Under the pieces are notes generated by a model. That model saw only the letters and a list, made by a program, of their open reading frames with translations, made no database searches and was not told the DNA's origin. Of a stretch of 64,000 nucleotides of DNA, positions 2,895-56,483 are shown in pieces. A program made the position numbers and the translations under genes. Numbering within the stretch: the first letter of the stretch is position 1; each line of letters begins with the position of its first letter. Origin of the DNA: a virus; the IMG/VR virus record IMGVR_UViG_3300045988_151591, positions 34,841-98,840 of that record. The stretch is one strand, 5' to 3'.

Positions 2895-3797
2895 TTAGAA
2901 GAGGGTCGGCTGCGCCATCTCCAATTTAATGCGCTTGCAAGCCTTGTTGTAATACTCCTTATTGAGCTCGAAGCCGATGAAGTTGCGCTTGGTCTGTATG
3001 CAGCCTATCTGCGTCGTTCCCACTCCCGAAAACGGGTCTAAGACAATATCGCCTTCGTTACTGCTGGCTTTTATCAGCCTACGGATTAGTTTTAACGGCT
3101 TTTGAGTGGGATGGATATGTTTTTCTTCATAGAAGTTAATATCAGACCACACGTCAGTAACCCCTATTTGCGGATTGAATGTCTGAGCGACTTTTTCATA
3201 CGGACAATCAAAGGAGAGTACATGGGAAAGTTTGTCCCAGAGCTCCTTCGTAGGAAATTGCTCACATACGTTATTGCCGGTGTAAATACTCCACATGCCA
3301 CCGCCATTAGACTTAACACCCAACGCTTCATTGATTTGCTTGGCAGTCAGTCCTAATGCTTCTTGGCGTTCTTTGAGGAATGGCTTTACAAACTTCTTAT
3401 TGTCTTTGATTATAAAGAGTACGCTTTCCGTTACGTTAGGAAACATCTTGTATCTTCGTGTAGCCCGTCCGCTTACGACACGCATACCCTTATCAATAAC
3501 AATTTGCTGTCTTAATTCAAGTCCAAGTGATTCAAGGTAAGGAATGAGCAAGACTAAGATTCTGAAATAACCAAAGCAGTAGAATGTTCCACCTATACGC
3601 AAAACTCGCGCAACCTCCTTCAACCATTTAATGCACCATTCCACATAGTCGCTCTCAGTTCTCCATTGATAATCCCATTGCTCGTCAATTACCTTCCAGT
3701 AAGGAGGGTCTGCAACTGCAAGGTCTATGGAATTATCTTGAATGGCTTTCATCCCTTCCAGGCAGTCTTCGTTATATATCTTATTCAGTTCTATCAT
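2895..3797 (-). CDS. DNA methyltransferase (N6-adenine/N4-cytosine, beta class)
   Basis: DPPY motif IV near the N-terminus ('AVADPPYW'). FxGxG motif I near the C-terminus ('VLDPFSGVGTT'). This order indicates the beta class. Confidence 0.85.
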   Translation of the reverse strand: MIELNKIYNEDCLEGMKAIQDNSIDLAVADPPYWKVIDEQWDYQWRTESDYVEWCIKWLKEVARVLRIGGTFYCFGYFRILVLLIPYLESLGLELRQQIVIDKGMRVVSGRATRRYKMFPNVTESVLFIIKDNKKFVKPFLKERQEALGLTAKQINEALGVKSNGGGMWSIYTGNNVCEQFPTKELWDKLSHVLSFDCPYEKVAQTFNPQIGVTDVWSDINFYEEKHIHPTQKPLKLIRRLIKASSNEGDIVLDPFSGVGTTQIGCIQTKRNFIGFELNKEYYNKACKRIKLEMAQPTLF

Positions 3798-3819
3798 GCT
3801 TTGTTGTTTTGTAAAATTA

Positions 3820-4428
3820 TCAGTTAAACCATTTCACAGTTGTCTCGCCTTTATATCCTTTCTCCCACACGAACCAGGCGTAAGCCGCAGCGCTGCTGCC
3901 GTACTTGTCGAAGTCGCCATTCATAGCGCATTTCAGTCTTGACGAGCTTACCCAAACACGAATGGGTGGGGTAGAACGGAAGAGAGCGCGTCGACCCTTG
4001 CCTTCGAGGAAAGTCAGCTTCAGGAACATCGCCACCTTCTTTCCTTCGGGGATGATGCTCAGAGCCTTCTCCACAAACTGCTGCGCATATTTGTATGGAG
4101 GATTGGTAACGATGTTGCCGTCCCATTCCATATTGTCAATAGAGAGAAAGTCGGCAACCTCACCGTACCCTCTATCCACAAGATCGCGGCTCACCACCTC
4201 ATACCCTGCTGCCTCCAATACTCTACTCATGTGACCCTCGCCACACGAAGGCTCAAGAATCCTGCCCTCAAACCTCTCCAGCTTGCACAGCCATTCCGTC
4301 GCCTTTGGCTCAGTGGCATAGTAATCCTCCCGCTGTCTATCCGCATTCGTATGGTTGCTTGCGCCCAACGTCTTGAATACAGCATCCGAGCCGCCTACCC
4401 AGTCCTTTCTTTTTATGTTGTTATTCAT
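3820..4428 (-). CDS. DNA N6-adenine methyltransferase (NPPY type)
   Basis: 'EPSCGEGH' AdoMet motif I is followed by 'NPPY' motif IV ('IVTNPPYKYAQQF'). Confidence 0.8.
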   Translation of the reverse strand: MNNNIKRKDWVGGSDAVFKTLGASNHTNADRQREDYYATEPKATEWLCKLERFEGRILEPSCGEGHMSRVLEAAGYEVVSRDLVDRGYGEVADFLSIDNMEWDGNIVTNPPYKYAQQFVEKALSIIPEGKKVAMFLKLTFLEGKGRRALFRSTPPIRVWVSSSRLKCAMNGDFDKYGSSAAAYAWFVWEKGYKGETTVKWFN

Positions 4429-5108: not shown

Positions 5109-5957
5109 TTATAATGTCAAGTCAATACCGAACTTGTCCTCCAAGAACTTCTTGAAGTCCGGCTTACCGAACAGCCCTGTGCTTACCTTGTTCCAATCTG
5201 CATTGGAGCTGTAAAACACGTTGCTGGTGAACCATTCGTAAACGTTGTCGTACCGCTGGCACGCCTTGCTGTCAGGATGCGTTTCCCTAAATCGTTGCCC
5301 CGCACGGAGATACGCCTTTGCTATCTTGGGATATTTCTGAAACTCGATAATGCGCTTGCGCCTTGATACGAGAGGGCAGCACATGCAGCCGAGACGTTTC
5401 GACACGTCGATTTGCCCCGAATTGTAATAAATGGGTGCGAGTTTCAACTTTCTGTCTATGATGAAGTCGCGCACGTCCTCATCGGTCCATTCCAGAATAG
5501 GATAAATCTGTTCTACGTGATTTTCCTCTTTCTTCGCTCCGTAGTATCGGCACACTGTTGGCTCGTCGTATCTTTCGCCTCTTTTTCTGCTCTCAGCTTT
5601 GCGCACGCCGATAATACTTTTGTTGAGCACCTTATATTCCTTCAGTTTTTCACAACAGAAACGAGTAAAGCGAGATGGAAATCCTTTCTGCGCCACGAGA
5701 TGAAAAAAGGAGGTCTTGGCCCGCAGTATCTCCACTCCCATCTCCCTGACGTGCCCCAACGTGCCTGGCGGGTCGATGGTCGTATTCTTGTATATGGCCC
5801 GATACTTGATGCCGGCCTCTTTCGCCAGTTGAAGGATCACGTCGGAGTCCTTACCGCCCGAGTAGGCTATCTCTATCTCGCTGTCGTATCGCTTCTGCAC
5901 ACTCTGCAGGAGTTTTATCGACTGTTTTACCTTTTTCTGCAGTTGTTCGTTTAACAT
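5109..5957 (-). CDS. PAPS reductase / PP-loop ATP pyrophosphatase family protein (DndC/CysH-like)
   Basis: Canonical PP-loop 'SGGKDS' at residues ~33-38. C-terminal Cys cluster 'CMCCP'. Confidence 0.85.
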   Translation of the reverse strand: MLNEQLQKKVKQSIKLLQSVQKRYDSEIEIAYSGGKDSDVILQLAKEAGIKYRAIYKNTTIDPPGTLGHVREMGVEILRAKTSFFHLVAQKGFPSRFTRFCCEKLKEYKVLNKSIIGVRKAESRKRGERYDEPTVCRYYGAKKEENHVEQIYPILEWTDEDVRDFIIDRKLKLAPIYYNSGQIDVSKRLGCMCCPLVSRRKRIIEFQKYPKIAKAYLRAGQRFRETHPDSKACQRYDNVYEWFTSNVFYSSNADWNKVSTGLFGKPDFKKFLEDKFGIDLTL

Positions 5958-5960
5958 ATT

Positions 5961-5995
5961 TTTTATAGTCTTTTTATAGTGTTTTTATAGCGCAT
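5961..5995. repeat. 3x tandem TTTTTATAG(N)(N)
   Basis: Sequence reads 'ttttttatagtctttttatagtgtttttatagcg'. Lies directly upstream of the PAPS reductase gene on the minus strand. Confidence 0.5.
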
Positions 5996-6086
5996 TTATG
6001 CACTATATATTTGCTGAGGTTCGATTCTTTTGGAGAAATCAGCCGACTCTTTTGATGAAATCAACCGGCCGCCGTTTTTCCCATGT

Positions 6087-6212
6087 GCTAACACTTTTGA
6101 TGCAAAGGGCTAACACATTCGATGCAAAGGGCTAACACTTTCGTTTTAATGTGTCGGCACATTCGCTGTTCAAACGATGCCCATTGTTTATATCAAACGA
6201 TGCCCATCACCT
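6087..6212. promoter_or_regulatory. repeat array: 3x GATGCAAAGGGCTAACAC plus 2x AACGATGCCCATTGTT half-palindromes
   Basis: Direct repeats read in the intergenic region. The second motif recurs at 30971-31061. Confidence 0.55.
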
Positions 6213-8965: not shown

Positions 8966-11900
8966 ATGGCTACAGCAAAGAAAACTCAAATCGTCATTAC
9001 TGCCAATGCCGCCGTCGCCAAAAAGGTGATGGAGGAGCTTCAGCAGCGCATTGACGGTATAAAACAGAAGATGGCTGCGCTCGACGTGACAACCAAGCAG
9101 GGCCAGCGCGAGTTTAACAAACTGAAGAAAGAATTGGTTTCGTATAACTCGGCCGTAACGCAGAATATCACAAACGAGGAACGGGTAAAACATGCCATTG
9201 ACAATCTAAACACAACTTCTCTCAAGGAGTTGCGCCGTGCGCTCGTCTCAGCAAAAAGCGTACTCGGAAAAACGTTTGCTGACGATCCGGGTTTGAAGAA
9301 AAAACAGCAGGATGTGCGAACCCTGCAAAATCAAATCGATAAACTCACTGGCTCGGTACACAAGCAGGGTGGAGCATGGCAGACAGCGATGAAGAACCTC
9401 ACGGCATACGTCGGATTGTTTGCAGTGTTCAATAAGGCGAAAGAACTTGTGACGGGTGTTATTCAAAAGAATCTCGATATGTCAGACTCTTTGGCGAATA
9501 TTCGCAAGGTCTCAGGCTTACTTCATCAGGATATTGACAAGATGGCGGTATCTTTGTCAAAAATTGATACCAGAACTTCTGTGCAGGAGCTGCAAAACAT
9601 CGCCTATGCTGGAGCTAAATTGGGTATTGGAGAGTATGGACCAGAAGGCTTGGAGTCTTTCGTGAAAGCGGCTAACCAAGTAAACGTGGCATTAAAAGAG
9701 GATTTGGGCGACGAAGCCCTCACTGCGCTGTCTAAGATTACCGAGGTTATGGGTCTTATCCCTAAGATGGGCGTAGAGCAGTCTATGCTTAAAACAGGTA
9801 GTGCCATCTTCAAATTGGCGTCCACTTCTACGGCCACGTCAAATAAGATAATCGATTTCAGTAATCGTCTCCTTGCTATGGGTAAGGTGGGTGCGCTTTC
9901 CACATCTGATATTCTCGCCCTTGGTGCAGCCGTTGACAGTATGGCTATCGAACCAGAAGTGGCAAGTACTGCTTTTACAAAGCTGATTACCGAGATACGT
10001 AAGGGCACATCATCTATCGAGAAGGATTTAGGCCTTGCAAAAGGTTCTTTAAAGTCTTTCCTTGAAGAGGGTAGGGGTATTGAGGCTATACAGACAATCT
10101 TCCATAAGATGCACGAGTCTGGGAATGTCTTTGCCCTGGATAGTCTTTTTAAGGATCTTGGTTCCGACGGCTCCAGACTTATAAAGGTAATGGTGACTAT
10201 GGCCGAGAAAGCTGATATGCTTGATAAAGCCGTATCAACCTCTCGCCAGGCTTTCGATGAAGGTATGGCTGTAACTCAGGAGTATAATATCCAGCAAGAC
10301 ACAGCGAAGGGTATCCTTGAGCGTGCCAACAATATGTGGAATAAATCGTTTGTAAATCCTGATGGTATTAATTCTGTTAAGCAGTTGTCGATGGCCTGGT
10401 ACGATTTGTCCCGCGCCCTGACAACATCCTCCGCTTCACAAAAAGCAGTTTTAGGTACGATAGATTTAATAGTCCTCTCCTTTAAAACGTTGATAGCATT
10501 ACTGCCTACTCTTGTCGGCTTTTTCATTGGAAAAGGTATTGCGATGGCTGCCATTCAACTTGTCAATATCAGCAAGGCTGTGTGGGCTTGGGTGGTTGCG
10601 CAAAAGGCTTTGAATTTGGCAATGTCGGCTAACGTATTCGGATTGGCTATTGGTGTTTTATCTACGCTTTACTCTTATTTTCAAAAGAATGCCAATGCGG
10701 CCCAGGATGCTGCCGATGCTGCCGATCATTTTTCAAAATCGTTAGCTGGAGCTAAATTTGAAGTCGGTCGTGCTACTGTTGAATTGGACGGTTACAAGCG
10801 GGCTATCGATGGTGCTAAAAAAGGAACAAAGGAAAGACAAGCCGCAATCGACCAGTTTAACAACAAATTTGGTTCTTATCTTTCTAAATTGATAACAGAG
10901 AAGTCTACTGCGAAGGATCTTGCAAAAGCTTATAACGAAGCTGCTTCAGCTATAGAACGAAAGGTTATGGCTCAAGCGTTAGAAAAGGATGAGCAACAAC
11001 ATATCGCACCAAAAGCAGGTAGAGAGACTCAACTGAAATACAATTACGACCAGTATGCAAAGAAGATTCGTTTAGGGGAGTATGGTGGCACATGGTTGAA
11101 AGCCATTGCTGATGATAATCTCAAAAAACATGGTTTAAATTATACTATAAGGGAGCTTATTAAGCGAAGTGGCGTTGGCAGTAATTATTCGGCCCAGCGT
11201 AGGAATGCTTTGATTGCTGCTATCATGAACACGAATGGTAGTCCGTCACGTATTTATGATTGGTTGACTACATCTAAAGGTGTATATGGTGAAAAGCACA
11301 TAGACAGAAACAACGCCGAGTTTACGGAACAAGAAAGACTGGTCGCCATGGGTGCCGCTTATCTCCGTCAACGTGCAGCGCGCGAAAAGTCTACGCGTGA
11401 AGTAGTCGAGAAATATGAGGATTATCCATATTTACTCGTTACGGAGAATCCTAACGGTGTTAATACCGGTGATGGTAACGGTAATGGCGGCAACGGTGGT
11501 GGTGGCAAAGGGGGCAGAAATACCGGTTCTGGTGGAAATCCTAACCATGAGGAAAAGAATGTCGCAAAAGACCGCGCCAATGCGCTTATCGCCAACATCA
11601 AGGCTTTCTATGAGGAACAGATGCGCAAATACCTGGAATGGGTGACTCAGATGAACGCCGATGGCGAAAAGATAAGCGAAGGCCAGCAGAAGGAGCAGAT
11701 GGACTATCTGCAATCGCAGATGGAACGTGCTCTTGGTACGGCTCGCCAGTCTATCGCCACTCTTGACAATGGCTGGAAAGAGTTCTATTCCCACATGGAT
11801 GAGAACGTAATGGTTTTCGACGATGAGACTTCTAAGCAACTGCTTGAGTCTATTGGAAAGGCGAATGTTGGTGAACTTCACAAGTTGTTCACAAAACTGT

Positions 11901-13816
11901 CCGGCGACCTCTCTCGCGAAAACAATAAGTCTCTCGCAGAAAACCTCGGCGCATTGCTCGACCAGATATTTGCCAACGGTTCAAAGGAATTGCGTGAGGC
12001 AGCAGAGAAGTTGCTTGCCCGTCAGCGTGAGATACAGAAGATTTTGAATGAGCACGACTATACGGGTGCAGTTGATCGTAATACCCGTAGTGAATTTGAC
12101 CGCTTAGGCTTTCTGCATCCAGCCAAGGATATTCGTGCAGACTCTCCCGAAGGTCTTGAAAAGATGAATACTGCTTTCGATAAGCTGACCACCAAGGCAC
12201 GCGAGTCTATCACCATATTATATAGCCTCAATCCTGAAAGCGAGAAATTTCAGAATCAGTTTCTTCAGTTCCTGTCTGTAGCTAATGATGGCTTCGATTT
12301 TTCAAAACTCACGGCGCAAAATCTCAAGGCTCTCTATCTCGAACTGATAAAGTATAACGACGAATACGAGTCGGCAAGCAAGAAGAGAGATGACGAGCGT
12401 AAGAAGCTGAATGATTACGGGTGGTCTAAAACTGATTATTATAAAGATTACCAAAGTAAGCTGCCTGGAATGGAACAGGAGGCGTCCATTAAGGGTAGCT
12501 ATCGCAATGCCGGTCAGCGTATGGGTATGGAGTCGGTGTCGGCTTCCGATCCAGAACTTGAACTGATGAAGGCTCGCATGGAGTTTGCACAGCAGTATTA
12601 CGCATTCCTCGAAGAGCACAACGCCACCGAGCAGCACCTTGCTGATGCCAGAAAGAGTATTATGTCAGCACAGGCCAACTATGCTCAAAAGCTCACGGGA
12701 GATATGTTCGAGCAGTACAATTCACTCCTTGCCTTCATGGGACCGTTGCAAACCTTTGGCGAGTCGGTGGGCGAAGCTTTCGCTACTATGACCCAAAGCG
12801 CTTCCGAAGGACGCAAGGCATTGAAAACAGCCTTTAAGCAGATGATAAAATCGTTTGCCACCAACTCCCTTCAGATGATCAGTCAACAGCAGATAGACCG
12901 TGCGCAGACCACGGCACACTATACGCAGTTGCTCCTCATGCAGCAGGCATTTGGTACAGCAAAGGTGCAGGGAGAGGTCGCCACTGGTACGGCAATGATT
13001 GGTGCGCAGCAAGCAACTAATTTGACCCAGGAACAGCTCGAAGGTGTTCACCAGCAAGTGATGGCAGCCCTTCGCTCGGCAGGCATCTTTGGATGGTGCG
13101 TCAGCACTCTTGGTCCTATTGCCGGTCCTATTGCTTATGGTGCAATGATGTCAATCCTCATGGGCTTGCTCAGTTTTGCTATCAGCAAGATAGGAGGCGA
13201 CAGTTCTAAAAATGCGACTGTCAAGGGTCAGAATACAAAGCTCGTTACAGGTATGCTCACCTACGACAGTGGTAACGTGCAAGACCTGAAACCTTTCGTC
13301 GGCAATGACGGTAGTCTCTATTGGGCAACCGAGGACGACAAACCGCACAACGGTGTGTCGCTCCTCACTCAGCCTACCGCCACTACCATCAACGGGCAAC
13401 CGTCCTTAGTAGCCGAGAATGGTCCTGAGTTAGTAATCGGTCGTGAAACCACGCAAGCCATGATGATGAACAATCCGGCACTCCTCAAGGCTCTCGTCAA
13501 CTACGACAGCAACTATTCAGGCAGACGTGCAGCAAGACGCGCATTTGACAATGGTAATGTCGGCGAGCTTGCGAGCGCAATGGGGGACGCAGCAGCGGGC
13601 TTTACAGCAGAAAATGGTAATCTTCTGTTGGGCGCACCAGCGGCCAACAATGTAATCGCTAACAACACAGCCAGCCAAGCCGCTCTCATGCAAGCCGTCA
13701 AGACCCTCCTCGACAGACTGAATGAGCCTATCTACGCAAAGATAGACATGTATGGCCGTGGCAATCTTTACGACAGTATGACGAAGGCCAATCAGTTTAT
13801 GAAAGGCAAGGGCTAA
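8966..13816 (+). CDS. tail tape-measure protein-like (1616 aa)
   Basis: Very long, coiled-coil-rich protein. Internal hydrophobic segments. Gly-rich 'GNGNGGNGGGGKGG' stretch. Confidence 0.6.
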   Translation: MATAKKTQIVITANAAVAKKVMEELQQRIDGIKQKMAALDVTTKQGQREFNKLKKELVSYNSAVTQNITNEERVKHAIDNLNTTSLKELRRALVSAKSVLGKTFADDPGLKKKQQDVRTLQNQIDKLTGSVHKQGGAWQTAMKNLTAYVGLFAVFNKAKELVTGVIQKNLDMSDSLANIRKVSGLLHQDIDKMAVSLSKIDTRTSVQELQNIAYAGAKLGIGEYGPEGLESFVKAANQVNVALKEDLGDEALTALSKITEVMGLIPKMGVEQSMLKTGSAIFKLASTSTATSNKIIDFSNRLLAMGKVGALSTSDILALGAAVDSMAIEPEVASTAFTKLITEIRKGTSSIEKDLGLAKGSLKSFLEEGRGIEAIQTIFHKMHESGNVFALDSLFKDLGSDGSRLIKVMVTMAEKADMLDKAVSTSRQAFDEGMAVTQEYNIQQDTAKGILERANNMWNKSFVNPDGINSVKQLSMAWYDLSRALTTSSASQKAVLGTIDLIVLSFKTLIALLPTLVGFFIGKGIAMAAIQLVNISKAVWAWVVAQKALNLAMSANVFGLAIGVLSTLYSYFQKNANAAQDAADAADHFSKSLAGAKFEVGRATVELDGYKRAIDGAKKGTKERQAAIDQFNNKFGSYLSKLITEKSTAKDLAKAYNEAASAIERKVMAQALEKDEQQHIAPKAGRETQLKYNYDQYAKKIRLGEYGGTWLKAIADDNLKKHGLNYTIRELIKRSGVGSNYSAQRRNALIAAIMNTNGSPSRIYDWLTTSKGVYGEKHIDRNNAEFTEQERLVAMGAAYLRQRAAREKSTREVVEKYEDYPYLLVTENPNGVNTGDGNGNGGNGGGGKGGRNTGSGGNPNHEEKNVAKDRANALIANIKAFYEEQMRKYLEWVTQMNADGEKISEGQQKEQMDYLQSQMERALGTARQSIATLDNGWKEFYSHMDENVMVFDDETSKQLLESIGKANVGELHKLFTKLSGDLSRENNKSLAENLGALLDQIFANGSKELREAAEKLLARQREIQKILNEHDYTGAVDRNTRSEFDRLGFLHPAKDIRADSPEGLEKMNTAFDKLTTKARESITILYSLNPESEKFQNQFLQFLSVANDGFDFSKLTAQNLKALYLELIKYNDEYESASKKRDDERKKLNDYGWSKTDYYKDYQSKLPGMEQEASIKGSYRNAGQRMGMESVSASDPELELMKARMEFAQQYYAFLEEHNATEQHLADARKSIMSAQANYAQKLTGDMFEQYNSLLAFMGPLQTFGESVGEAFATMTQSASEGRKALKTAFKQMIKSFATNSLQMISQQQIDRAQTTAHYTQLLLMQQAFGTAKVQGEVATGTAMIGAQQATNLTQEQLEGVHQQVMAALRSAGIFGWCVSTLGPIAGPIAYGAMMSILMGLLSFAISKIGGDSSKNATVKGQNTKLVTGMLTYDSGNVQDLKPFVGNDGSLYWATEDDKPHNGVSLLTQPTATTINGQPSLVAENGPELVIGRETTQAMMMNNPALLKALVNYDSNYSGRRAARRAFDNGNVGELASAMGDAAAGFTAENGNLLLGAPAANNVIANNTASQAALMQAVKTLLDRLNEPIYAKIDMYGRGNLYDSMTKANQFMKGKG

Positions 13817-13867
13817 ATTTACGAATTTTATTTTCTTTATCTTATTTATTAGTTAGTATTTTCTGAT

Positions 13868-13905
13868 GAGACCGCTCCGTTGTGAAACGTGGCGGTCTTT
13901 TTCTT
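13868..13905 (+). terminator. intrinsic terminator
   Basis: 'gagaccgc...gcggtcttttt' hairpin plus T-run, 50 bp after the TMP stop. Confidence 0.6.
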
Positions 13906-13960
13906 TCGTTGTGAGGTATGAACGACCATCAAAAGATACTCTGTACGAAATCCGAATAAT

Positions 13961-14075
13961 CTGGTCGCATTTCGTAAAAATGAATGTGACAGGGTAGGGT
14001 AGTGGTATAACTGACTCATTTATTGGGACTTTATTCGTATTTTTGGTCGCATTTCGGGGTCTTGGTCGCATTTTT
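13961..14075. repeat. iteron-like repeats TGGTCGCATTT (3 copies)
   Basis: Copies at ~13961, ~14043 and ~14061, inside an ~900-bp AT-rich non-coding region upstream of the primase gene. Confidence 0.55.
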
Positions 14076-14710
14076 CATGAATCCTAAGCATACTATATCA
14101 GAATTTTGGGTAATTTTTTTATTCTCCTAAAATCAAAAGCCCCTAACCCCAATTTAGAAGTTAGTAGCATTAACGGCTTTGCCGTAAACATCAGACAATA
14201 AGTTACTTACAAGATTGAGATGGGGCAAAGCATAAGACGGAATTGAGCCAATTTTGCTGTATTTTATATCTTTTAGATAAATATTTTATTTCTTATGCGC
14301 ATATTAGTTTATAAAAATAATAATCATTTTGAGACCAAAATAATATAAAAAGCTAATTATTAAGCAAGTAACAGCAAGAAAAAAGTGGGCAACAGGGTGA
14401 TAATCGTGGGACAATCATGGGACTAAAATGGAGAAAAATATGATGAGTGGACTTTTGCTTTTTGGCTCATTTTTGAAAAATGGGACTTTTTGATACAGAA
14501 ATGAGACCAGAGTCTTCATTTTGGTCTCATTTTATTTTATTCTCCTTCTCGTAACTCAAAAATACCTGTTATTACGTGAAACAACTGAGATGTTTCGATT
14601 AAATTTCTTTTAATATATCTTAAATATTCAGGAAAACATCCCAGGTATTTTGTTGTCTTGATTTTATTTCTTAATTTTGCAACGAAAGTACTAAGTATAA
14701 TAACTAAGAT

Positions 14711-15796
14711 ATGTTTGACGAAGTTTGCTCTATTTATGAGTCTGCCCAAGATGCTTATGGTCGTTTCGTAGACCGCGAGACGGGTGAGTGCATTCAGCAG
14801 ATGACTATCCGCGAGTTCTGTCTTACGGACAGATGGAAGCCGTATGTTCAGCGCCTTCGTGCTATGCGTCAGGAATTTGGCAGCAAGGCAAAGAAGATGC
14901 CCGAGTACATCGATACCAAGAAGCATTTGCCTGGAGCAACTCTTAGCGGCTTGTTCGCCCTCTATGAGGATGACAGTCTGACCCATCCAGGGCAGCGTGT
15001 CATGGTTAGCCGACGAGAGAGCCACCTGAAACAGCACACGGGCTGGCTCGCCATCGACATTGATCTGCAGGACAATCTTCAGATAACTGATTTTGAAAGT
15101 ATATTTAAGCTTGCCCGTTTTCGTCCTGAGATAGGATTAATGATGCGGTCTTGCTCTGGTACTGGTTATTTCGGTCTGGTTCGTCTGGCCTATCCCGAAA
15201 GACACAAAGACCAGTTCAAAGCTCTGCTCAAAGAATATGCCGCTATTGGCATCATGCTCGACAAGGCTTGCAGCAACATCGGACGTGTGCGCTTCGCCTC
15301 ATGGGATGATCCCGAACATATATATATCAATGAAAATGTGGTGCCGTATAAGGGACTGGAAGATATGGCTGTGTTGCCATCGCTAATTCCTGTAACTAAA
15401 GTCGCTACGCATTACGAAAATACGTCGTCAGGTCAGAGGTCGGGTTATACTGGTGATTGGGAGAATGATACACCCGACATCATCTTGCGCAAAGCTCGTG
15501 TTCTTGTATGCAAGGTAGAGCAGAATGCTGTTGACATTATGGAAAACTATGATGACTGGGTTAAATGCGGAATGTCTTTATACAGTATCGATCCGCATGA
15601 AGGCTATGATATGTGGAAGCGAGTTTCTCGTTTCCGTCCCTTTGATGCCAACCACGGACACCGTGAATCAGACTTTGTGGCTCCTTGGAAATCATTCGGA
15701 AAATACGACAGAGTAAGAGCAAATACTTTTTTCATGTTTTGCAAAAGAGCCAAGGTAACACTTTCGAGGGAGGATATGCAGGAAATCTATGGCTAA
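14711..15796 (+). CDS. primase-polymerase (AEP-type) with PriCT-1-like C-terminal domain
   Basis: AEP motif I 'GWLAIDIDLQD'. 'SCSGTGYFGLV' and 'RVRFASWDD' motifs. C-terminal 'DWVKCGMSLYSI' PriCT-like segment. Confidence 0.6.
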   Translation: MFDEVCSIYESAQDAYGRFVDRETGECIQQMTIREFCLTDRWKPYVQRLRAMRQEFGSKAKKMPEYIDTKKHLPGATLSGLFALYEDDSLTHPGQRVMVSRRESHLKQHTGWLAIDIDLQDNLQITDFESIFKLARFRPEIGLMMRSCSGTGYFGLVRLAYPERHKDQFKALLKEYAAIGIMLDKACSNIGRVRFASWDDPEHIYINENVVPYKGLEDMAVLPSLIPVTKVATHYENTSSGQRSGYTGDWENDTPDIILRKARVLVCKVEQNAVDIMENYDDWVKCGMSLYSIDPHEGYDMWKRVSRFRPFDANHGHRESDFVAPWKSFGKYDRVRANTFFMFCKRAKVTLSREDMQEIYG

Positions 15797-15973: not shown

Positions 15974-16480
15974 ATGAAACTGATAACAATTACTGGTCCG
16001 AGTGGCGCAGGAAAGGACACTGTGGCTCAGATGCTGTCCGACTTGGGCGGCTATAAAGTGATATGTTCTTATACCACACGTCCGAAGCGCGAAGGCGAGA
16101 TTGACGGTTGGCAGCATTATTTTGTAGAGAAGTGCGACGTACCGCACGATAAGATGTTGGCATACACCCAGTATGGCGGCTATGAGTATTGGACCACCAT
16201 CGACCAGGTGACGGACAAGGCTATTTACGTGATTGACGAGGACGGACTGAAAGCCTTGTGTGAGAAATTCCCCGACATCGAGCTATTCAAGATTTGTGTG
16301 ACGGCATGGGAAGCAACTCGACTGCGCCGAGGGGTGTCGCAGGAACGCTTAGACCGCGATCAACAGCGCAATCTTCTGTCCTTGTTCTTCTACGATGCAG
16401 TAATCTTTAATAACGGCTCGCTCGAAAGTTTGTGCGACAAGGTGAAGCGACGAGTTTTGTGTAAACTTCGGGAAATATGA
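15974..16480 (+). CDS. guanylate kinase-like nucleoside monophosphate kinase
   Basis: P-loop 'GPSGAGKDT'. 'YTTRPKREGEIDGWQHYFV' matches the guanylate-kinase TTRxPRxGExDGxDYxFV signature. Confidence 0.75.
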   Translation: MKLITITGPSGAGKDTVAQMLSDLGGYKVICSYTTRPKREGEIDGWQHYFVEKCDVPHDKMLAYTQYGGYEYWTTIDQVTDKAIYVIDEDGLKALCEKFPDIELFKICVTAWEATRLRRGVSQERLDRDQQRNLLSLFFYDAVIFNNGSLESLCDKVKRRVLCKLREI

Positions 16481-16522
16481 GAATGCACTATTTTTTAAAT
16501 AACAAATTAAAATTCATCCATA

Positions 16523-17419
16523 ATGAAATTCATCGAACCACAAGTAGAATGGTGGCAGCAGACTACTCTTGCACAACATATAGCAAGAGTGGGCAGAATA
16601 TGCTACAAGGCAAAGGGCAAGCAGCCCGAAGAAGGAATGACCGAAGAGGAAGTGAAAACTTTCATCCAGAAGCGCGACGAGGAACGTTGCAGAGGCTTCT
16701 GGAAAAGCGGACATCGCTCGATGCTTCGCCACGGCACAGTCTATTTCTTTATGCCCAACGAAAGGGGTCTTCCTAACCACATCTGGGCATATCTGGAGGC
16801 ATCGCCTTACATCAACTATGCCACCAAGAATCATAAGGTATGGTTCAGTACCAATACTCAGTTTGCGCTTGAGCACGAGGACATGATGAATGCGCTTAGT
16901 CAGTATGGTGTCAGCGAAGACGAGTTTATCGAGAAGGCACTGAAGTACGAGTGTGAGGAGGCATTCTCTATTATCCGCATGACGATGGTAGTAACCACGC
17001 AGATAAGTACATCGCGTGAGCTCAACCGCACGTCGCCCAACAGCATCGCCGAGCAGAGCACACGCTATTGCAATTTAGAAAAAAAAGGAGGCGTACAGAT
17101 AGCACGTCCGCATTGGCACGAAGAAGGCAGTCGATGGCAGCGCTTTGTGTATGGCCTTGTATGTCGAGTGTGTGAGTGGGGCTACAACCGACTTCTGAAG
17201 TCCGGCTTGAAGCCGCAGGACGCACGAGGTGTTCTGCCTCTCGACACCTATACCGTTGTGGCATATACATACACGCTTTCCGACTGGAGCCATATTCTTG
17301 ACCTTCGCTTCCATGGCAAGACGGGCACGCCGCATCCCAATGCAAAGATGATTGGCGAGAAAATACGCAACATCATCATCGAGCGTATGCGCCAGTATTG
17401 TGATGAGTTTGACATTTAA
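16523..17419 (+). CDS. ThyX-family (flavin-dependent thymidylate synthase-like) protein, divergent
   Basis: C-terminal 'ARGVLPLDTYTVVAYTYTLSDWSHILDLR...' matches the ThyX ARxVLPL...R block. The canonical RHRxxSxxExSxRY motif is degraded to 'SRELNRTSPNSIAEQSTRY'. Confidence 0.65.
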   Translation: MKFIEPQVEWWQQTTLAQHIARVGRICYKAKGKQPEEGMTEEEVKTFIQKRDEERCRGFWKSGHRSMLRHGTVYFFMPNERGLPNHIWAYLEASPYINYATKNHKVWFSTNTQFALEHEDMMNALSQYGVSEDEFIEKALKYECEEAFSIIRMTMVVTTQISTSRELNRTSPNSIAEQSTRYCNLEKKGGVQIARPHWHEEGSRWQRFVYGLVCRVCEWGYNRLLKSGLKPQDARGVLPLDTYTVVAYTYTLSDWSHILDLRFHGKTGTPHPNAKMIGEKIRNIIIERMRQYCDEFDI

Positions 17420-17509: not shown

Positions 17510-18487
17510 ATGGGCAAAAGCAAAAAGCAACAAGAGGCAAAGCGCATAGATGCCATCTATGCGCAGCCTACCATTTATTACATTAACTTCAAAGATGTAC
17601 CTTTGGAGAAATATACCGAGTCGCTTGACCTACTCTTTCGTGATCCTGACTTTAATGAGTTGATGACGAAACGCAATAACCTCGCGAAGGTGGCAAGTAG
17701 GTTGAAGCAAGGTTCTTCAGAGATTCAAAATTTGGTGAAGCAGATACAGAAGCGCGATTTAGAGCTGGCTTATACGATGTATTCCTCCGTTGTGTTGGCG
17801 AATGTTCGTTCTAACGTTACCTTCGACTTTTTCTCCTTTGGTACTCTACTGAGATATTTTGTAGATTATTCTCAGGATGGTATGCAAGAGAAGGTAGATA
17901 CATTGTCACTCAACCTTGATAAGGTAGCGTTTCTTTCCGACATGCTGGAATGCGTCGTGAAGGATGTCAGGTCGAATATGTATGCAGTCTTCGGCAATAC
18001 TACTGAGTTCCATCAGTTCGACGGTGTTATCAAAATGATACAGCAACTTCGTGGCTTTTATCAGTCTGTTATTGGTAAGGATGACAACACTCCTAAAGCA
18101 CAGCTGTATTTTGAATATTCTGACAGTATCGACGATTACCTCAGCAAACGTTTGACTACCTACAGCAAGAAGCTTCGTAAACTGACACCCATGTTGCCAG
18201 TTTATACTGCAGAGCAGATGGTAGAAGCCATTAACCTGTTTTTTTACAATGAAACCCATTTTGATAAGGAATTTATCAAGCATACGGAAAGTGGAGGAAC
18301 GTATATAGATGCTTTATCGCTCGTCAAAGTTTTATCGCCCAGTCAGACAGAAAGGCTCGACAAGGTGATGAAAGAGGCGGGATGTACTGTCACAGCGGAT
18401 AAAGATCCAGCCAACTATTGCTTTAGAGTAACAGATATTATCCTGTTGTACTACCATAGAAGTAAAGGTAAAAAAGTAAAAAGGTAA
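17510..18487 (+). CDS. hypothetical protein (325 aa)
   Basis: ORF with a Lys-rich C-terminus. Confidence 0.5.
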   Translation: MGKSKKQQEAKRIDAIYAQPTIYYINFKDVPLEKYTESLDLLFRDPDFNELMTKRNNLAKVASRLKQGSSEIQNLVKQIQKRDLELAYTMYSSVVLANVRSNVTFDFFSFGTLLRYFVDYSQDGMQEKVDTLSLNLDKVAFLSDMLECVVKDVRSNMYAVFGNTTEFHQFDGVIKMIQQLRGFYQSVIGKDDNTPKAQLYFEYSDSIDDYLSKRLTTYSKKLRKLTPMLPVYTAEQMVEAINLFFYNETHFDKEFIKHTESGGTYIDALSLVKVLSPSQTERLDKVMKEAGCTVTADKDPANYCFRVTDIILLYYHRSKGKKVKR

Positions 18488-18536
18488 AAAAAGACCCTCT
18501 TGCCAATCTGAATGTAAAAAGTAAACATTTTTTAAG

Positions 18537-27133: not shown

Positions 27134-27628
27134 ATGAAGTACAATCAATTAATCAACCAGGCCCGTGTTGACGGACAGATGACAGACAAAAAACTCAATG
27201 CTGCCTTGGAGCAGTTGTCGTGCGACCTGATGAAGGTGGAGAATGAGAATCCAGAGCTTTACTGGAAGATCATCCGTCACCAGCATGCCGTGCTCTACGA
27301 CCGCCACTACAGCGAGATGTTTGCCCATCATGATGTCGACCGACTTCTCTACAGCAAGTTGGACGATGAGGGTGTGCCTATGGGCAGGGGCGCTCACTGG
27401 ACTAAATCGGAGATTGAGCAAGCCACCAAGGACTTCGACTTCCCAAGCAAGGTGAATTGTTGGGACAAGTATGTAGCCTTCAATGCCATGTATGCTGACC
27501 TCTGCGCCGAGATGAGCGAAGAGGAGATTATCAAAGCCGCATACTTGTTCTACTTCTGTGATGCCGACTGGAAGGACACAGATGTACTCGACTGTACGAA
27601 AGTATGGGAATACATGAGCCATGTTTGA
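27134..27628 (+). CDS. hypothetical protein (164 aa)
   Basis: ORF. Confidence 0.5.
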   Translation: MKYNQLINQARVDGQMTDKKLNAALEQLSCDLMKVENENPELYWKIIRHQHAVLYDRHYSEMFAHHDVDRLLYSKLDDEGVPMGRGAHWTKSEIEQATKDFDFPSKVNCWDKYVAFNAMYADLCAEMSEEEIIKAAYLFYFCDADWKDTDVLDCTKVWEYMSHV

Positions 27629-27894
27629 AAAGTAAAAAGGTAAAAAGAGCCGAATATCATTTTGCTGGCGTCAGCAAAATGGTAGTCTTGCCTTTTCAGG
27701 ATAATATTTCGTTTCAGAAGCCGCTTTGCTCCACGAAGAGTGCAGCATTGCGGCTTCCATTGTTTCCGGCTGCGTCAACCCGGTGCGCAGTCTGTCATAC
27801 AAAGTAGCTGGGATATTTTTGTCCCGCACGACGGATAGCGTTTTCGTATCTTTGCCCTACATTTATTAACAACAGAACAAGAAAACGATAAACT

Positions 27895-28449: not shown

Positions 28450-28469
28450 TTTTGATAACTTTCCCATCC

Positions 28470-28620
28470 ATTTTTGGATTTTTCTGGATAAATCTGGTCC
28501 AGCTTTTGGATTTTTCTGGATTAAAAATAGTCCAATTTTGGCGTTTTTTGGATAAAATCGTACAATTTTAGATTTTTTCTGTACTAAAATCGTCCAATTT
28601 TGGCATTTTTGGGATAAAAA
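28470..28620. repeat. 5x tandem ~30-bp repeat TTTTGGATTTTTCTGGATAAAATCGTCCAA
   Basis: Degenerate direct repeats read between the endolysin gene and 28638. Confidence 0.6.
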
Positions 28621-29672: not shown

Positions 29673-29771
29673 GCTTTTAAAGGTAAAAAAGTAAAAAGGT
29701 AAAAAAGTAAAAAGAGCCTTCTTGCTGATTTCTAAGACGAAAAAAGTAATAATCAAACCAAACAAGAGAAT

Positions 29772-30912
29772 ATGAAATACGGACTACCTTACAAAGGAAG
29801 CAAAAACAAGTTGGCAGAGCGCATTGTGCGCCTCCTGCCCAAGCGCACGCACCTCGTAGATTTGTTCTGTGGTGGATGCGCCGTGAGCCATGCTGCCCTG
29901 CTTATGGGCAAGTATGAGCACATACATATCAACGACATCAACTGGATGTGTCCTACGCTATTCATTGATGCCCTTAACGGTAAGTACAATGACGAAAACC
30001 GATGGATTAGCCGTGAAGACTTCTTTCGTCTGAAGGACACTGACCCTTATGTGGCTGTAGTGTGGTCGTTTGGCAACAATCTGCGCGACTATCTTTATTC
30101 TAAAGAGATTGAGCCATTGAAGAAAGCCATACACTATGCCATATTCTTCAGCGACTATTCGCTTGGCAAAGAACTCGGTCACGACCTCTCGTTCATCGAC
30201 CCCATACAAGACCTTCAAAAGCGATACCTTGCCGTGAAGCATTACTTCAATAAGTTGGGTCACTTCCAGCAGCAATCGTTTGAGGGGGGGGCAGAATCAG
30301 CGGATGCAGCAGGAATCCTTCAGTCGCACTACCCGACTTGCCTCAATACAAATGGGGGGGTACTCAGAGGATGCAGTCAGCGGAAGCAAACGAAAGGCTC
30401 AATACATTTCGGAATATCATCCCTTGGAAAGGCTGTCAAATCCAGTCTTTCAAAAAAAAAAAAATACAAGCGACCCAGCGAGCTACAGCACAACGAAGGA
30501 CGAAACATCGTTGCATCGCTTGCAATATCGAGAACGGCAGCACAGTCTGCCCAGATATTCGGGGGGGCAGTTTCTACCTATTACGTCCTCTGTGCTTGAC
30601 TATGAAGAAGTCACGATACCCGAAGACAGCGTGATTTATTGCGACATTCCATACGAGGGTACAGACGGATATTTAGAAAAAGGCAAAGGAGGTTTCGACT
30701 ATGAACGATTCTATCAGTGGTGTGAGCGGCAAACGCAACCCGTATTCATATCCTCTTATCAAATACCCGAAGACCGCTTCGACTGCATAGAAGAGTTTAC
30801 CCATCGTTGCACCTTGGCTCAGAAAGACAACAACCTCGTGACGGAGCGCATCTTCGTTCCCAAGCATCAAGCCGAAAGAGGCAACCGCACCGTGCAGCTC
30901 ACGCTGTTCTGA
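29772..30912 (+). pseudogene. Dam-type N6-adenine methyltransferase, split across two frames by a ~300-bp homopolymer-rich insert
   Basis: N-terminal 'YKGSKNKLAERIVRLLP...LVDLFCGGCAV' is Dam motifs X/I. 'CDIPYEGT' is a DPPY-like motif IV in the 30280-30912 frame. Between them are G8, G8, A13 and G7 tracts, with no stop codons in two frames. Confidence 0.6.
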
Positions 30913-30970: not shown

Positions 30971-31061
30971 AACAAACGATGCCCATTGTTATATGCAAAC
31001 AATGCCCATTGTTTAACCACAACAATGCCCATTGTTGCATATAAACGATACCCATTGTTTT
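30971..31061. promoter_or_regulatory. array of 4 palindromic sites AACAATG-CC-CATTGTT
   Basis: Read directly at 30971, 30997, 31021 and 31044, upstream of the HU-like gene. The same motif occurs at 6172-6212. Confidence 0.55.
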
Positions 31062-32907: not shown

Positions 32908-34701
32908 ATGTCACGCAACAAGAACAGAGTTACCAACTTACAGCAGCTCCAAGATCGTAGTGAGGAGCTGAAGCGCGATGGATATGTGGCCGTGTCGCCC
33001 TCTGCTTTCATCAATCCCAACAGCGGCGCACAAGTCTTCTCATGGAACGATTACGTCCGCTCCATGCTCTTCGAGACAGCCGGCATGACAGCGCAGGGCA
33101 GCTCGTCCACCTCATCGGGAGCACGACGACAGATTTCCACCATCTTCGCCTCCAGCGGCGGCGAGAACAAGGCCAAGCCCAACGGCGTGGGAACACCCGG
33201 ACTGGGCTACATGGAATGGGGCGTGGGCAACCGACTGCCCAACCTCGTCTGGATTCTCTCACGGATGTCGCCATTCACCGCTGCCGGCGTCGACTTCATC
33301 AAGAAGATACTCGTAGGCCACGGACCCTCGCCCAAGTACCACTACACCCAGTACGTAGGCGGCAACATCACCGAGAAATACATCCCCTACGCATCGGCTG
33401 GCACACTGCTCCGCGGACAAATAGCCGACCTCAAGGCACAGGAGGCAGCAGAACGTCAGGCACAACAACAGAACGGCGTAAGCGGCGACCCCGACGATCC
33501 TCTGCATTTCGACAGTCAGCAGACCGAAGGCCAGCCCAAGGACAGCGACGAGATGAAAGCCCTGAAGGATGCGCTCGCCAAATGGGAACAAACCAACCGC
33601 GAGGTACAGAAATTCATAAAGGACAACGACCTGATGCAGACCTTCCTCAACATGGCGGGCGACATGGCGCTCATGTCGCAGTGCTTCGTCGAGCTGCAAC
33701 TCAACCAGCGGCAACTCTCCGATGAGGGCAAGCCGGTACCCACCAGCCAGTGGACCCCCAAGGTCGTGGGACTGAAACACCGCAGCATCTTCACCACCCG
33801 ACTGGAGCGACAGGACTCCAACTATCGCATCAACTATGCCTACGTGTCGAACCAGTGGCTCGACCCCACGCAAGACCGCACCGCACAGTTCGCCGACCTC
33901 GACAAGAGTATCGCCGCAGTGCCCTATCTTCCCGCCGTGTCGGCAGTGAAAGACCTCCATGCAGCCGTGCGCCGTGCCCGTCAGCAGCGAGTGAGCCGCA
34001 AGGACCGCCCCACCCGCTTCATCATGTCGCCACGCGACTATGGCGGTCCCTACTATGCCGATGCCCTCTGGCATTCCATCTTTGCCGGAAGCATCTACGA
34101 GTATGCCTTCACCATTGTCGACGACCGACTCACCCGTAAGCGCAACTCCAACATCATCGGTCGCGTCATCTACATTCACCAGGAATATCTCAAGAACCTC
34201 TACACCCAGCAGGGCGACAAGAAGACCAAGACCATGGCGCAGCTTCAGCAGGAGGTGTTCAGCGACATCAACACGTGGCTCTCCAATCCCGACAATGCGG
34301 GTCAGGCTCTTATCTCTGCCGTGTTCACCGGCGCCGACGGCAAGGAGCACAAGGCATGGGAGATTGTGGAGATAGAGAGCAAGGCCAACTCGCAAGCGCA
34401 AGCCGAGAAGACCGAGCTGCAGGAAATCACAAGCATCATCTTCTTCGCCATGGGCCTCGACTCCAAGCTCATCGGCAACACCCCAGGCGACGCAACCTCA
34501 TCGGGCGGCACCGACCTCCGTGAGCGTTTCCTCGTCAAGCAGATACAGTTTGCCCCATTGCAGCAGCTCATGCTCCGAGCCTTGGAGGTAATCGACGATT
34601 TCAATGAATGGGACACACACCTCGAATGGCAGATAGACCGTGAGGTGCTTACCACCCTCGACAACTCGAAGACAGGCGTCAAGAAGCAGGAACAGGAGTA
34701 A
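32908..34701 (+). CDS. portal-like protein candidate (597 aa)
   Basis: Size and position at the head of a structural operon. No motif certainty. Confidence 0.35.
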   Translation: MSRNKNRVTNLQQLQDRSEELKRDGYVAVSPSAFINPNSGAQVFSWNDYVRSMLFETAGMTAQGSSSTSSGARRQISTIFASSGGENKAKPNGVGTPGLGYMEWGVGNRLPNLVWILSRMSPFTAAGVDFIKKILVGHGPSPKYHYTQYVGGNITEKYIPYASAGTLLRGQIADLKAQEAAERQAQQQNGVSGDPDDPLHFDSQQTEGQPKDSDEMKALKDALAKWEQTNREVQKFIKDNDLMQTFLNMAGDMALMSQCFVELQLNQRQLSDEGKPVPTSQWTPKVVGLKHRSIFTTRLERQDSNYRINYAYVSNQWLDPTQDRTAQFADLDKSIAAVPYLPAVSAVKDLHAAVRRARQQRVSRKDRPTRFIMSPRDYGGPYYADALWHSIFAGSIYEYAFTIVDDRLTRKRNSNIIGRVIYIHQEYLKNLYTQQGDKKTKTMAQLQQEVFSDINTWLSNPDNAGQALISAVFTGADGKEHKAWEIVEIESKANSQAQAEKTELQEITSIIFFAMGLDSKLIGNTPGDATSSGGTDLRERFLVKQIQFAPLQQLMLRALEVIDDFNEWDTHLEWQIDREVLTTLDNSKTGVKKQEQE

Positions 34702-34773
34702 CCCTCCCCTCCCTGACTTCCGTCCCGACAACAACATCTTTTTTTCACCCAGCACATAACAGCACAACACATC

Positions 34774-35883: not shown

Positions 35884-35913
35884 AACCCCGACAACAATAA
35901 AAGACACAACAAT

Positions 35914-36990: not shown

Positions 36991-37027
36991 GATGTCGTTT
37001 TGTTTTTAGTGCTTATTTTAGTCAGAA

Positions 37028-41750: not shown

Positions 41751-41995
41751 ACAAAGAAGATATACGTCAGCGGGTGTTCAATATCGTTGAAGGCCTGCGC
41801 ACACCTTGGGCATCGACAGCAGAAGTGACCGACAGCGCTAACCTGCGTGATGATCTTGCTCTTGAGTCTATTGACTTTCTCGACCTCGTTCTTCAGACCG
41901 AAACCATGTTCCATATCAAGATTTCGCCAGAAGAGGCAAAAGACTTACAGCTTGTGTCTGATGTGACAGCTATCGTAGAGAAGAAAATGTCTTAG
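41747..41995 (+). CDS. acyl carrier protein
   Basis: 82 aa. 'DDLALESIDFLDLVLQTETMF' matches the ACP DLGxDSLDxVELVMxxEE helix-II motif, with a conserved Ser. The ATG overlaps the KS stop codon. Confidence 0.8.
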   Translation: MNKEDIRQRVFNIVEGLRTPWASTAEVTDSANLRDDLALESIDFLDLVLQTETMFHIKISPEEAKDLQLVSDVTAIVEKKMS

Positions 41996-42058
41996 CGACT
42001 TTCGCAGCCAAAAGAAAAATCTCAGCACATACATTCATCTCCTGTTTTATCTATAGAT

Positions 42059-56461: not shown

Positions 56462-56483
56462 CCATTTTAAAATCCTCGAAGAT

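Follow-up and report, generated by a model that had tools for sequence, protein, structure and literature searches.

The 64,000-nucleotide stretch analyzed here (positions 34,841 to 98,840 of IMG/VR virus record IMGVR_UViG_3300045988_151591; the whole 64 kb is referred to as the window, and cassette coordinates are window coordinates) contains, between a tape-measure gene and a gene for a predicted archaeo-eukaryotic primase (AEP), a self-contained cassette of about 650 nt, at roughly 13,900 to 14,545, with no protein gene inside it. Because the short repeats of this region are nonrandom and conserved in position across a family of related phages, with an AT-rich tract alongside, we regard it as a genuine cis-acting element that is predicted to be bound by protein and that may have an origin-like role. 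The canonical origin of the phage is predicted to lie elsewhere, in a plasmid-type module consisting of a Rep_3 initiator gene and its iterons, which leaves the cassette, at most, the role of a second origin or of a control region.

The gap that holds the cassette (13817 to 14710; 894 nt) is AT-rich and noncoding and separates a 1616-amino-acid tape-measure gene (8966 to 13816; PF10145 and PHROG tape-measure matches) from the ATG of the primase-like gene at 14711. It contains no open reading frame (ORF) of more than 72 amino acids and none that is conserved in relatives; three small ORFs (72, 34, and 17 amino acids) were rejected as coding sequences, as they are not conserved and the gap carries indels in relatives. 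The sequence TGGTCGCATTT occurs in three exact copies on the + strand, at 13962, 14044, and 14063, and in two copies with one mismatch, at 14499 (- strand) and 14522 (+ strand). All five matches in the window fall within 571 nt, with 1.24 expected, and none of 100 shuffles reached five. The shorter form GGTCNCA is similarly concentrated, with 7 of 21 window copies in the gap (0.29 expected; P of about 3e-8), as are GTCNCAT (9 of 29) and TGGGAC (4 of 24; 0.34 expected), the looser GTCCCA/TGGGAC variants amounting to four additional sites. The GC content of the gap is 0.32, compared with about 0.48 for the window, and reaches a 100-nt minimum of 0.16 at 14250 to 14349. A first-pass annotation, made by a model from the sequence alone, had described some 800 bp of noncoding DNA ahead of an AEP primase gene, starting at 13906, which is the end of the tape-measure terminator; it had also noted three direct repeats, A/T-rich sequence, and palindromic segments between 14330 and 14540, and these descriptions hold, the palindromic segments being further motif copies in opposite orientation at 14330 and at 14499/14522, of which the last two form a hairpin.

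The same annotation had called the region a typical iteron and unwinding-element origin. The AT-rich tract is consistent with that description, but the arrangement of the repeats is not that of an iteron array: the sites are 8 to 11 bp long, their orientation is mixed, and their start-to-start spacing is irregular (82, 19, about 270, about 150, 21, and 23 nt). Paired sites lie 11, 19 to 21, or 23 nt apart, near whole helical turns. Tandem Repeats Finder detected no regular iteron array of 17 to 22 bp in the gap, and no match to the DnaA box TTATCCACA with one mismatch or fewer was present in 13817 to 14710. Known RNA, tRNA, or transfer-messenger RNA (tmRNA) identities were also rejected: Rfam 15 gave no match in the whole window at the gathering threshold and, at E values up to 10, only subthreshold chance matches on terminator-like hairpins, and ARAGORN detected neither a tRNA nor a tmRNA.

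A primase-based scan of IMG/VR recovered 109 relatives on contigs of 50 to 106 kb, of which 80 were kept. The cassette is carried by more than 100 contigs in this size range, and about 100 related phage contigs keep the gap; no cultured phage resembling the locus was found in the phage collection. One contig of 92,227 bp has ends that overlap by about 120 nt, and the genome map is therefore circular. A noncoding gap of roughly 720 to 1,100 nt with a GC content of 0.31 to 0.36 is kept in roughly 60 of 70 relatives, and within it only a core block (14091 to 14215) aligns in nearly all of them, at 70 to 85% identity. Nucleotide identity across the cassette is 0.60 to 0.84, compared with 0.26 to 0.55 (saturated) at the fourfold-degenerate sites of the adjacent primase gene; the cassette is strongly conserved and under purifying selection.

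The relatives fall into three types according to the motif that they carry: GGTCNCA (type A, as in the window), GTCCA/TGGAC (type B), and TGCACTCT (type C), and the motifs are enriched at P values of 1e-5 to 1e-12. With distances counted from the core/H1 loop, minus to the left and plus to the right, type-A sites stand at -188, -119, and -100, in reverse orientation at +156 to +167, +307 to +318, and +327 to +338, and then at +348 to +359. Type B, the larger group, contains no GGTCNCA at all and instead places TGGAC(A/T)/GTCCA at -168, -129, -100, +255, +284 to +317, +337, and +357, and type C (L038) has AGAGTGCA/TGCACTCT at -102, +167, +275, and +338. Site positions relative to the core are constant to 1 to 2 nt across the three motif types, the positions -100, +167, +338, and +358 being shared, and a terminal inverted pair occupies the same place in all three, built in type B (+337/+357) from the type-B motif. 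The repeats behave as recognition sites under geometric constraint, and since three interchangeable motif types occupy one geometry, the sites are predicted to be protein-binding sites.

The cassette is exchanged as a unit. In two relatives with flanks that are 87 to 95% identical, one (L062) has eight GGTCNCA sites and the other (L061) has no GGTCNCA and four TGGACW sites; only the DNA between the flanks has been replaced, the exchanged part beginning about 100 nt past the tape-measure stop and ending about 115 nt short of the primase ATG. The primases of these two genomes are 97% identical despite the different motif types, which indicates that the repeats are not read by the primase. Genes on the opposite strand, without a single PHROG match, fill a 3.6-kb block between the cassette and the primase gene in 8 of 70 relatives, and it is the cassette that stays at the tape-measure terminator; in one such genome (L103), the insertion begins just to the right of the terminal inverted pair. 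The proposal in the first-pass annotation that the adjacent primase is the initiator for the repeats is largely contradicted by these two observations, and we predict that the primase would show no sequence-specific binding of TTGGTCGCATTT. The cognate binding protein was likewise not found among the other candidates, the motif type being uncorrelated with the primase, with the Rep iteron type, and with genes within 4 kb of the primase or 10 kb of ParA. Pairing of the motif copies as RNA helices (A/B/C with D/E/F, or the F:G hairpin; sites are lettered from left to right) was also considered. Copies of GTC-N-CA in a single genome differ without constraint at their central base, and about half of the type-A relatives have a mismatch at the center of the F/G hairpin, so RNA pairing is not what holds the copies.

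The conserved core (14091 to 14215, + strand) comprises a TATA-like stretch, a near -7 box, a G-poor tract, and two small hairpins, H1 and H2. The near -7 box, GAATTTTG, lies at 14102 to 14109 at the 5' edge of the core and is followed by a C/T/A tract at 14111 to 14156 that contains a single G. The scarcity of G is a property of the family, the 54 nt upstream of H1 holding one to five G residues in 105 distinct members, and a local switch from C-rich to G-rich sequence, visible as a change in the sign of the GC skew, is found at the core family-wide. H1 (14160 to 14174) has the form GTTA [GTAGCAT] TAAC, with an invariant 7-nt loop, and H2 (14175 to 14183) the form GGC [TTT] GCC, extendable to ACGGC/GCCGT at 14173 to 14185, where it overlaps H1; the 5-bp form of H2 is the minimum-energy fold as DNA. 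The stems of both hairpins are kept by compensatory changes, as would be expected of an ssi or primase-recognition site. Fully complementary H1 stems in relatives include GTTA/TAAC, GTGA/TCAC, GTTG/CAAC, GTAG/CTAC, GTCA/TGAC, ATTA/TAAT, and GTGT/ACAC, and both sides change in three of four pairs, with 98.8% of alignment cells paired. In H2 both sides change in all three pairs (GCC/GGC, GGC/GCC, ATT/AGT, AAC/GTT, and others). For the two hairpins together, six of seven pairs change on both sides and 98% of cells are paired, a result matched by 0 of 500 shuffles and far above that of slid controls. Two further structures were discarded: a long-range stem around H1/H2, with a C-rich left arm and a G-rich right arm, is modest (-16.5 versus -13.0 kcal/mol) and missing in some members, and in another candidate helix, in type B, some changes are compensatory and others disruptive.

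On the left, the cassette is bounded by the intrinsic terminator of the tail/tape-measure operon (13869 to 13903, + strand; stem at 13869 to 13898, then a T-run), which folds at -10.6 kcal/mol as DNA (z = -5.0) and carries compensatory changes in relatives. Site A (13962 to 13972, +) is an exact TGGTCGCATTT, and each type-A relative has a counterpart of it at -188 to -201 from the core; a variant site, TGGGACTTT, follows at 14024 to 14032 (+; GTCCCA on the - strand) and is repeated exactly at 14481. Sites B (14044 to 14054) and C (14063 to 14073), both exact TGGTCGCATTT copies on the + strand, are 19 nt apart and are found at -119 and -100 in every type-A relative. To the right of the core, the most AT-rich tract (14250 to 14349; GC content of 0.16) is a candidate unwinding element by composition only. 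Site D (14330 to 14341, - strand), which reads TGAGACCAAAAT on the + strand and ATTTTGGTCTCA on the - strand, lies at +156 to +167 in all type-A relatives, and the type-C site is at +167. A cluster of variant sites follows at 14406 to 14453 (+), with GTGGGAC at 14406, ATGGGAC 11 nt farther on at 14417, and GTGGAC at 14447; it includes a tandem repeat of 11 nt in two copies (14402 to 14423) and is kept as GGGAC repeats in type-A relatives. The equivalent of site E, AAATGGGACTTT (14478 to 14489, -), is AAATGAGACCA in other type-A genomes and lies at +307 to +318 in relatives. The right boundary (14498 to 14543) is formed by the inverted sites F (14499 to 14509, -) and G (14522 to 14532, +), which make a terminator-like hairpin with an 11-bp stem (-9.5 kcal/mol as DNA; z = -5.4) and a T-run after it. 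As a candidate intrinsic terminator, this hairpin has its stem and T-run here and in type A, no + strand T-run in type B, and a center that is often mismatched.

The promoter of the primase operon lies outside the cassette (14649 to 14680, +) and consists of TTTG at 14649 to 14652, 19 nt, and TAATTTTG-C at 14672 to 14680 (TAATTTTGC). The position of its -7 box is kept in 10 of 10 type-A relatives and also in type-B relatives, and a TAnnTTTGC box stands upstream of most operons in the window. We take this to be a promoter of the Bacteroidota type, by the consensus familiar from the Bacteroides promoter literature. A canonical TAnnTTTG promoter at a conserved position was sought inside the cassette and was found in neither type A nor type B, and a canonical Bacteroidota promoter there was accordingly rejected.

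The primase-like gene (14711 to 15796, +) encodes 361 amino acids with BT4734-like_N (PF08800; 31 bits, cutoff of 22.4) and PriCT_2 (PF08707; 26.5 bits, cutoff of 22) domains and a PHROG "DNA primase" match (E = 7e-12). These family matches, together with an acidic DxD motif (AEP motif I, AIDIDL), identify its product as a predicted AEP primase; a sequence search found no solved homologue. The N-terminal half is 80 to 90% identical family-wide, across all motif types. The C-terminal half is mosaic, with at least three unrelated-looking variants (11 to 75% identity; genomes L003 to L082) that do not sort by motif type and whose recombination is independent of that of the cassette upstream. In most genomes, the cassette has the genes for the primase, guanylate kinase, and ThyX as neighbors.

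Exact-protein look-ups carried the analysis beyond the window, on the right into a 104,810-bp ENA contig, L319. L319 is 99.95 to 99.97% identical to window positions 55928 to 64000 except for one 4.27-kb indel, an insertion in L319 at window position 60316, and from that point rightward the L319 coordinate equals the window coordinate minus 51659. Between positions 10848 and 18160 of L319, the order is an NAD-dependent DNA ligase gene (which starts at about 62507 in the window and runs off its end), a 900-nt region of repeat arrays, a gene for a ParA-like ATPase (PHROG 164; E = 3e-48), a 117-amino-acid ORF, a 412-nt gap, and rep. This gap (L319 positions 16189 to 16600) contains four direct 22-bp iterons, ACCTACGGATTTGTTTAC, repeating exactly every 22 nt, then about 165 nt of AT-rich spacer, and four inverted iterons that end at the ATG of a 519-amino-acid protein; Tandem Repeats Finder reports arrays of 22 nt in 3.9 copies at the locus. 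The 519-amino-acid protein has subthreshold Rep3_N and "replication initiation protein" matches, and a 381-amino-acid homologue (25% identity; E = 5e-22) has Rep3_C above the Pfam cutoff and a weak match to R6K pi. In window-equivalent coordinates, this iteron origin would be at about 67.85 to 68.26 kb, about 3.8 to 4.3 kb past the right end, and a second Rep_3/iteron example is found in another genome (L324, about 11290 to 11668). Genomes that match at 96 to 97.5% identity to either side of this locus differ there by replacement of the iterons together with rep and of nothing else, and every Rep variant is paired with iterons of its own. By its organization, the locus is a textbook origin/initiator specificity module, and it is here, rather than at the cassette, that we would place the canonical origin of the phage. 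The first-pass annotation was right to see origin-like features beside the primase, and these may have such a role, but a far better origin is found elsewhere in the same genome type. The plasmid-like combination of Rep_3, ParA, and iterons suggests that the phage has a phage-plasmid lifestyle.

The ParA gene has its own upstream repeat arrays, with motifs unlike those of the cassette. In the window, four tandem 11-nt units, TCGTAGTACTT, at 52725 to 52768, upstream of an ORF at 52829 to 53266, resemble the GTACTTT and ACGTAGGT repeats upstream of the ParA gene (L319 positions 14300 to 14660), and they may be a dispersed site for the same binding protein. Another array (28467 to 28620), of 32 nt in 4.9 tandem copies with the DnaA-box-like sequence TTATCCA(G/A)A, separates the endolysin gene from the gene that follows. 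It was considered as a rival origin, but relatives differ in the number of copies, have other repeats in its place, or lack it, so it is not a conserved origin.

Our preference, which is a tentative one, is to regard the cassette as a second, lytic-phase replication origin or priming site. We suggest that a DNA-binding protein of the phage or its host, existing in at least three specificity types, would occupy about 7 to 11 short sites, of the form GTC-N-CA in the present phage, which flank the core to left and right at set distances, and that the resulting protein complex would melt AT-rich, strand-asymmetric DNA (the G-poor tract at 14111 to 14156 and the 16%-GC tract at 14250 to 14349). H1 and H2, with the GTAGCAT loop (14160 to 14183), could then form in the exposed single strand or in a crossing transcript and might be the signal by which the neighboring primase, through its conserved N-terminal AEP domain, recognizes the site or starts priming; it is the joint conservation of the core and of this half of the protein that makes the hairpins a candidate site for recognition by the primase. 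The array of sites and its geometry, the AT-rich tract, the compositional switch at the core, the lack of a conserved promoter, and the nature of the neighboring genes are all points in favor of a second origin. A separate lytic origin is also favored by the plasmid-like lifestyle to which Rep_3 and ParA point, given the precedent of P1-type phage-plasmids, which use two origins, with the lytic one separate (PMC10983915).

A number of observations weigh against a second origin. No cognate initiator for the cassette was found in the primase, by Rep iteron type, or in the 4 kb around the primase and the 10 kb around ParA, and a complete classic origin with its initiator is present elsewhere. The cassette is only loosely linked to the primase, from which it is 3.6 kb apart in 8 of 70 relatives. 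The hairpins are confined to one side, whereas RSF1010 has an opposed pair; H1 by itself has little thermodynamic stability and does not appear in the minimum-energy fold; and covarying hairpins with invariant loops are more usual in RNAs than in origins. GC skew, which the first-pass annotation had proposed as a check, shows no inflection at the cassette, but since there is none at the Rep/iteron origin either, it cannot arbitrate and was uninformative.

The RNA-like character of the core is the starting point for the main rival explanation, which we consider possible though doubtful, in which the cassette is a repressor-guarded control region that makes a noncoding RNA and resembles an immunity region. 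A noncanonical promoter in the core would direct synthesis of a + strand RNA of about 430 nt, with a C/U-rich unstructured leader, H1, H2, and an end at F/G, or the sequence might act in cis on transcription in the manner of nut or put sites; the flanking sites would be operators of a type-specific regulator, and the three motif types would correspond to heteroimmunity classes. Covarying stems with an invariant loop are a classic RNA signature, the type-B consensus folds better as the + strand (-38.0) than as the - strand (-20.2) or as column shuffles (-0.3 to -8.4), and deviations of the G-T type favor the + strand by 5 to 2, a bias that is not significant. In many members, the core carries at its 5' edge the sequence nAnnTTTG, which is close to a canonical -7 box, and in type A the F/G hairpin with its T-run resembles a terminator, but neither type has a positionally conserved canonical promoter inside the cassette and the right-end hairpin of type B lacks a U-run on the + strand. 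Geometry is kept while specificity is swapped, as in lambdoid immunity regions, and the cassette needs no adjoining protein gene; 11 operator sites over 560 nt would nevertheless be unusual for one promoter. Covariation, moreover, backs just two short hairpins, the long-range stem, itself putative, has little strength and is not found in every member, and no Rfam family matches even at E values up to 10.

It is less probable still, and in our judgment unlikely, that the cassette is a cis-acting DNA site with no part in replication initiation, such as a pac site for a small terminase, a partition or centromere-like cluster, or a recombination or resolution site, with the core as the point of cutting or exchange. 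Two clusters of short sites around a conserved center are seen in P1 pac, attP, and res, and the genome has a ParA system, but the arrays of the ParA gene itself carry different motifs and the surroundings include no gene for a terminase, integrase, or resolvase. Of 80 primase-anchored contigs, five end in the cassette, with about one expected, and two contigs from metagenome-assembled genomes (MAGs) end 84 to 97 nt from the core; the ends are scattered, however (98, 230, 331, 353, and 527 nt from the primase ATG), the break in the 92,227-bp contig is an artifact of circular assembly, only 1 of 75 tape-measure-anchored contigs ends in the cassette, and cassette swapping plausibly causes assembly breaks. 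A 28-nt core pattern is absent from host chromosomes, its three matches in 185,579 genomes all being in MAG contigs of 6 to 52 kb, and the one of these that was inspected (L201) has the same tape-measure, cassette, and primase arrangement. Two specific candidates in this class were rejected: attP, with no host attB and no integrase in scans of some of the ORFs in the window and in its 20-kb extensions (the scope of all such family scans), and cos/pac, with scattered contig ends, one of them from a circular assembly, and no terminase gene nearby. The literal form of the earlier proposal, in which the cassette is the origin of the phage and the adjacent primase is an initiator that binds the TGGTCGCATTT iterons, has in its favor that the repeats, the AT-rich tract, and the proximity of the primase gene are real, but it is already largely contradicted and must be considered highly improbable. 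Almost identical primases flank different motifs, the N-terminal half of the protein is alike in all types while the C-terminal half is not sorted by type, the 3.6-kb insertion parts cassette from primase, and the Rep_3 iteron origin elsewhere is replaced together with rep as one module. That the gap is a nonfunctional spacer with chance repeats, to which AT-richness alone would lend credence, is refuted by the motif enrichment, by the retention of gap length in most relatives, by sequence identity well above that of saturated synonymous sites, and by hairpin covariation.

Several known systems come close to the cassette. Phage P1 has a plasmid origin, oriR, with RepA iterons and parABS and a separate lytic replicon, oriL/repL; the family described here likewise combines Rep_3, iterons, and ParA with a second candidate element beside lytic-type genes (primase, guanylate kinase, and ThyX). 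P1 oriL, however, lies inside repL and is activated by transcription from a repressor-controlled promoter, whereas the cassette has no gene inside it, no RepL homologue was seen, and its role in replication is putative. The oriV of RSF1010/IncQ plasmids has tandem 20-bp iterons read by RepC, an AT-rich region, and ssiA and ssiB on opposite strands, primed by RepB'. The cassette shares with it repeated sites (protein bound by prediction here), an AT-rich tract, conserved hairpins, and a dedicated non-DnaG primase, but its sites are 8 to 11 bp long, in mixed orientation, and on both sides of the core, and it has one hairpin pair. Octamer iterons of either orientation, grouped into two separate clusters, make up the ori and crr regions of P4 and are bound by its alpha primase-helicase; two clusters of short motifs in noncoding DNA, again facing both ways, and a primase as the key replication protein recur here, but the P4 primase binds the repeats itself, and motif type here is uncoupled from the primase. 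The family's own Rep_3/iteron origin resembles the cassette in having AT-rich noncoding repeats and in being exchanged as a module between 96 to 97% identical genomes, and it differs in that its 22-bp iterons, at a 22-nt period, abut the rep ATG and change together with rep, whereas the cassette has no such iterons and no protein gene. In lambdoid OR/OL and in the operator/enhancer of Mu, as here, geometry is kept while the site sequence is swapped, and there are multiple short sites facing either way; those systems have an adjacent repressor gene and operators that overlap clear promoters, neither of which is seen at the cassette. In its predicted mode of action, the cassette is akin to known multisite nucleoprotein origins and operators; it differs from them in being a protein-free, exchangeable unit with three specificity types on one geometry and a covarying, invariant-loop hairpin center. 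Neither the described RNA families nor the named phage families offer a fit; Flandersviridae, Gratiaviridae, and Quimbyviridae were each considered and rejected because they encode DnaG primases (PMC8008677).

The TAnnTTTGC promoters and the assignment of two of the three MAG contigs with the core pattern (L201 and L203) to Prevotella sp. MAGs point to a Prevotella/Bacteroidota host. Other repeats in the window may be regulatory. Several tandem arrays of 11 to 23 nt lie at 5960 to 6207 and 30972 to 31060, and the near-palindrome AAC(G/A)ATGCCCATTGTT occurs twice at 6170 to 6205 and four times at 30972 to 31060 and looks like an operator common to these two distant loci. A cassette of about 40 nt, TCTATATTATAGRCC...AAAATTGTACTGAATTATGG, precedes successive small ORFs at 59485, 59800, 60120, and 61010 and is probably a reiterated early promoter or operator. 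The 8-nt repeats AAAGGTAA/AAAAGTAA stand at gene ends, often followed by AAAGAGCC (18460 to 18491, 27628 to 27647, 29679 to 29714, and 61259 to 61286); the element is also present in the cassette of one relative (L029) and downstream of the endolysin gene in relatives. DNA methyltransferase genes are found at 2895 to 4428 and 29772 to 30599 (N6_N4_Mtase; PHROG 799), with a C5 DNA_methylase gene upstream of the window in two contigs (L320/L321), a gene resembling that for phosphoadenosine phosphosulfate (PAPS) reductase at 5109 to 5957, and, at 40536 to 42058, a beta-ketoacyl synthase gene (PF00109 and PF02801), after which comes a short stretch lacking annotation. The region from 33000 to 37000 is compositionally odd (GC content of 0.56 to 0.60, negative GC skew, and AT skew of +0.18 to +0.27), and its proteins have no family matches.

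In summary, short repeats and AT-rich DNA beside a replication gene do not alone identify an origin, and the cassette stands as a caution on this point. It is possible, and we offer the idea with some reserve, that the cassette represents a new kind of protein-free, exchangeable control module, defined by an invariant-loop hairpin core, a fixed array of sites, and at least three specificity types, and acting as a lytic origin or primase-loading signal or as an RNA-based immunity switch, in a large undescribed family of Prevotella/Bacteroidota phage-plasmids of about 90 to 105 kb with a Rep_3 initiator, ParA, and an AEP primase. The analysis locates the cis-acting sites of a phage family that is abundant in human-gut viromes, namely, a plasmid-type origin with Rep_3 and ParA and a conserved cassette beside the primase gene, and these sites could provide handles on plasmid persistence, on the switch to lytic replication, and on incompatibility or immunity types.

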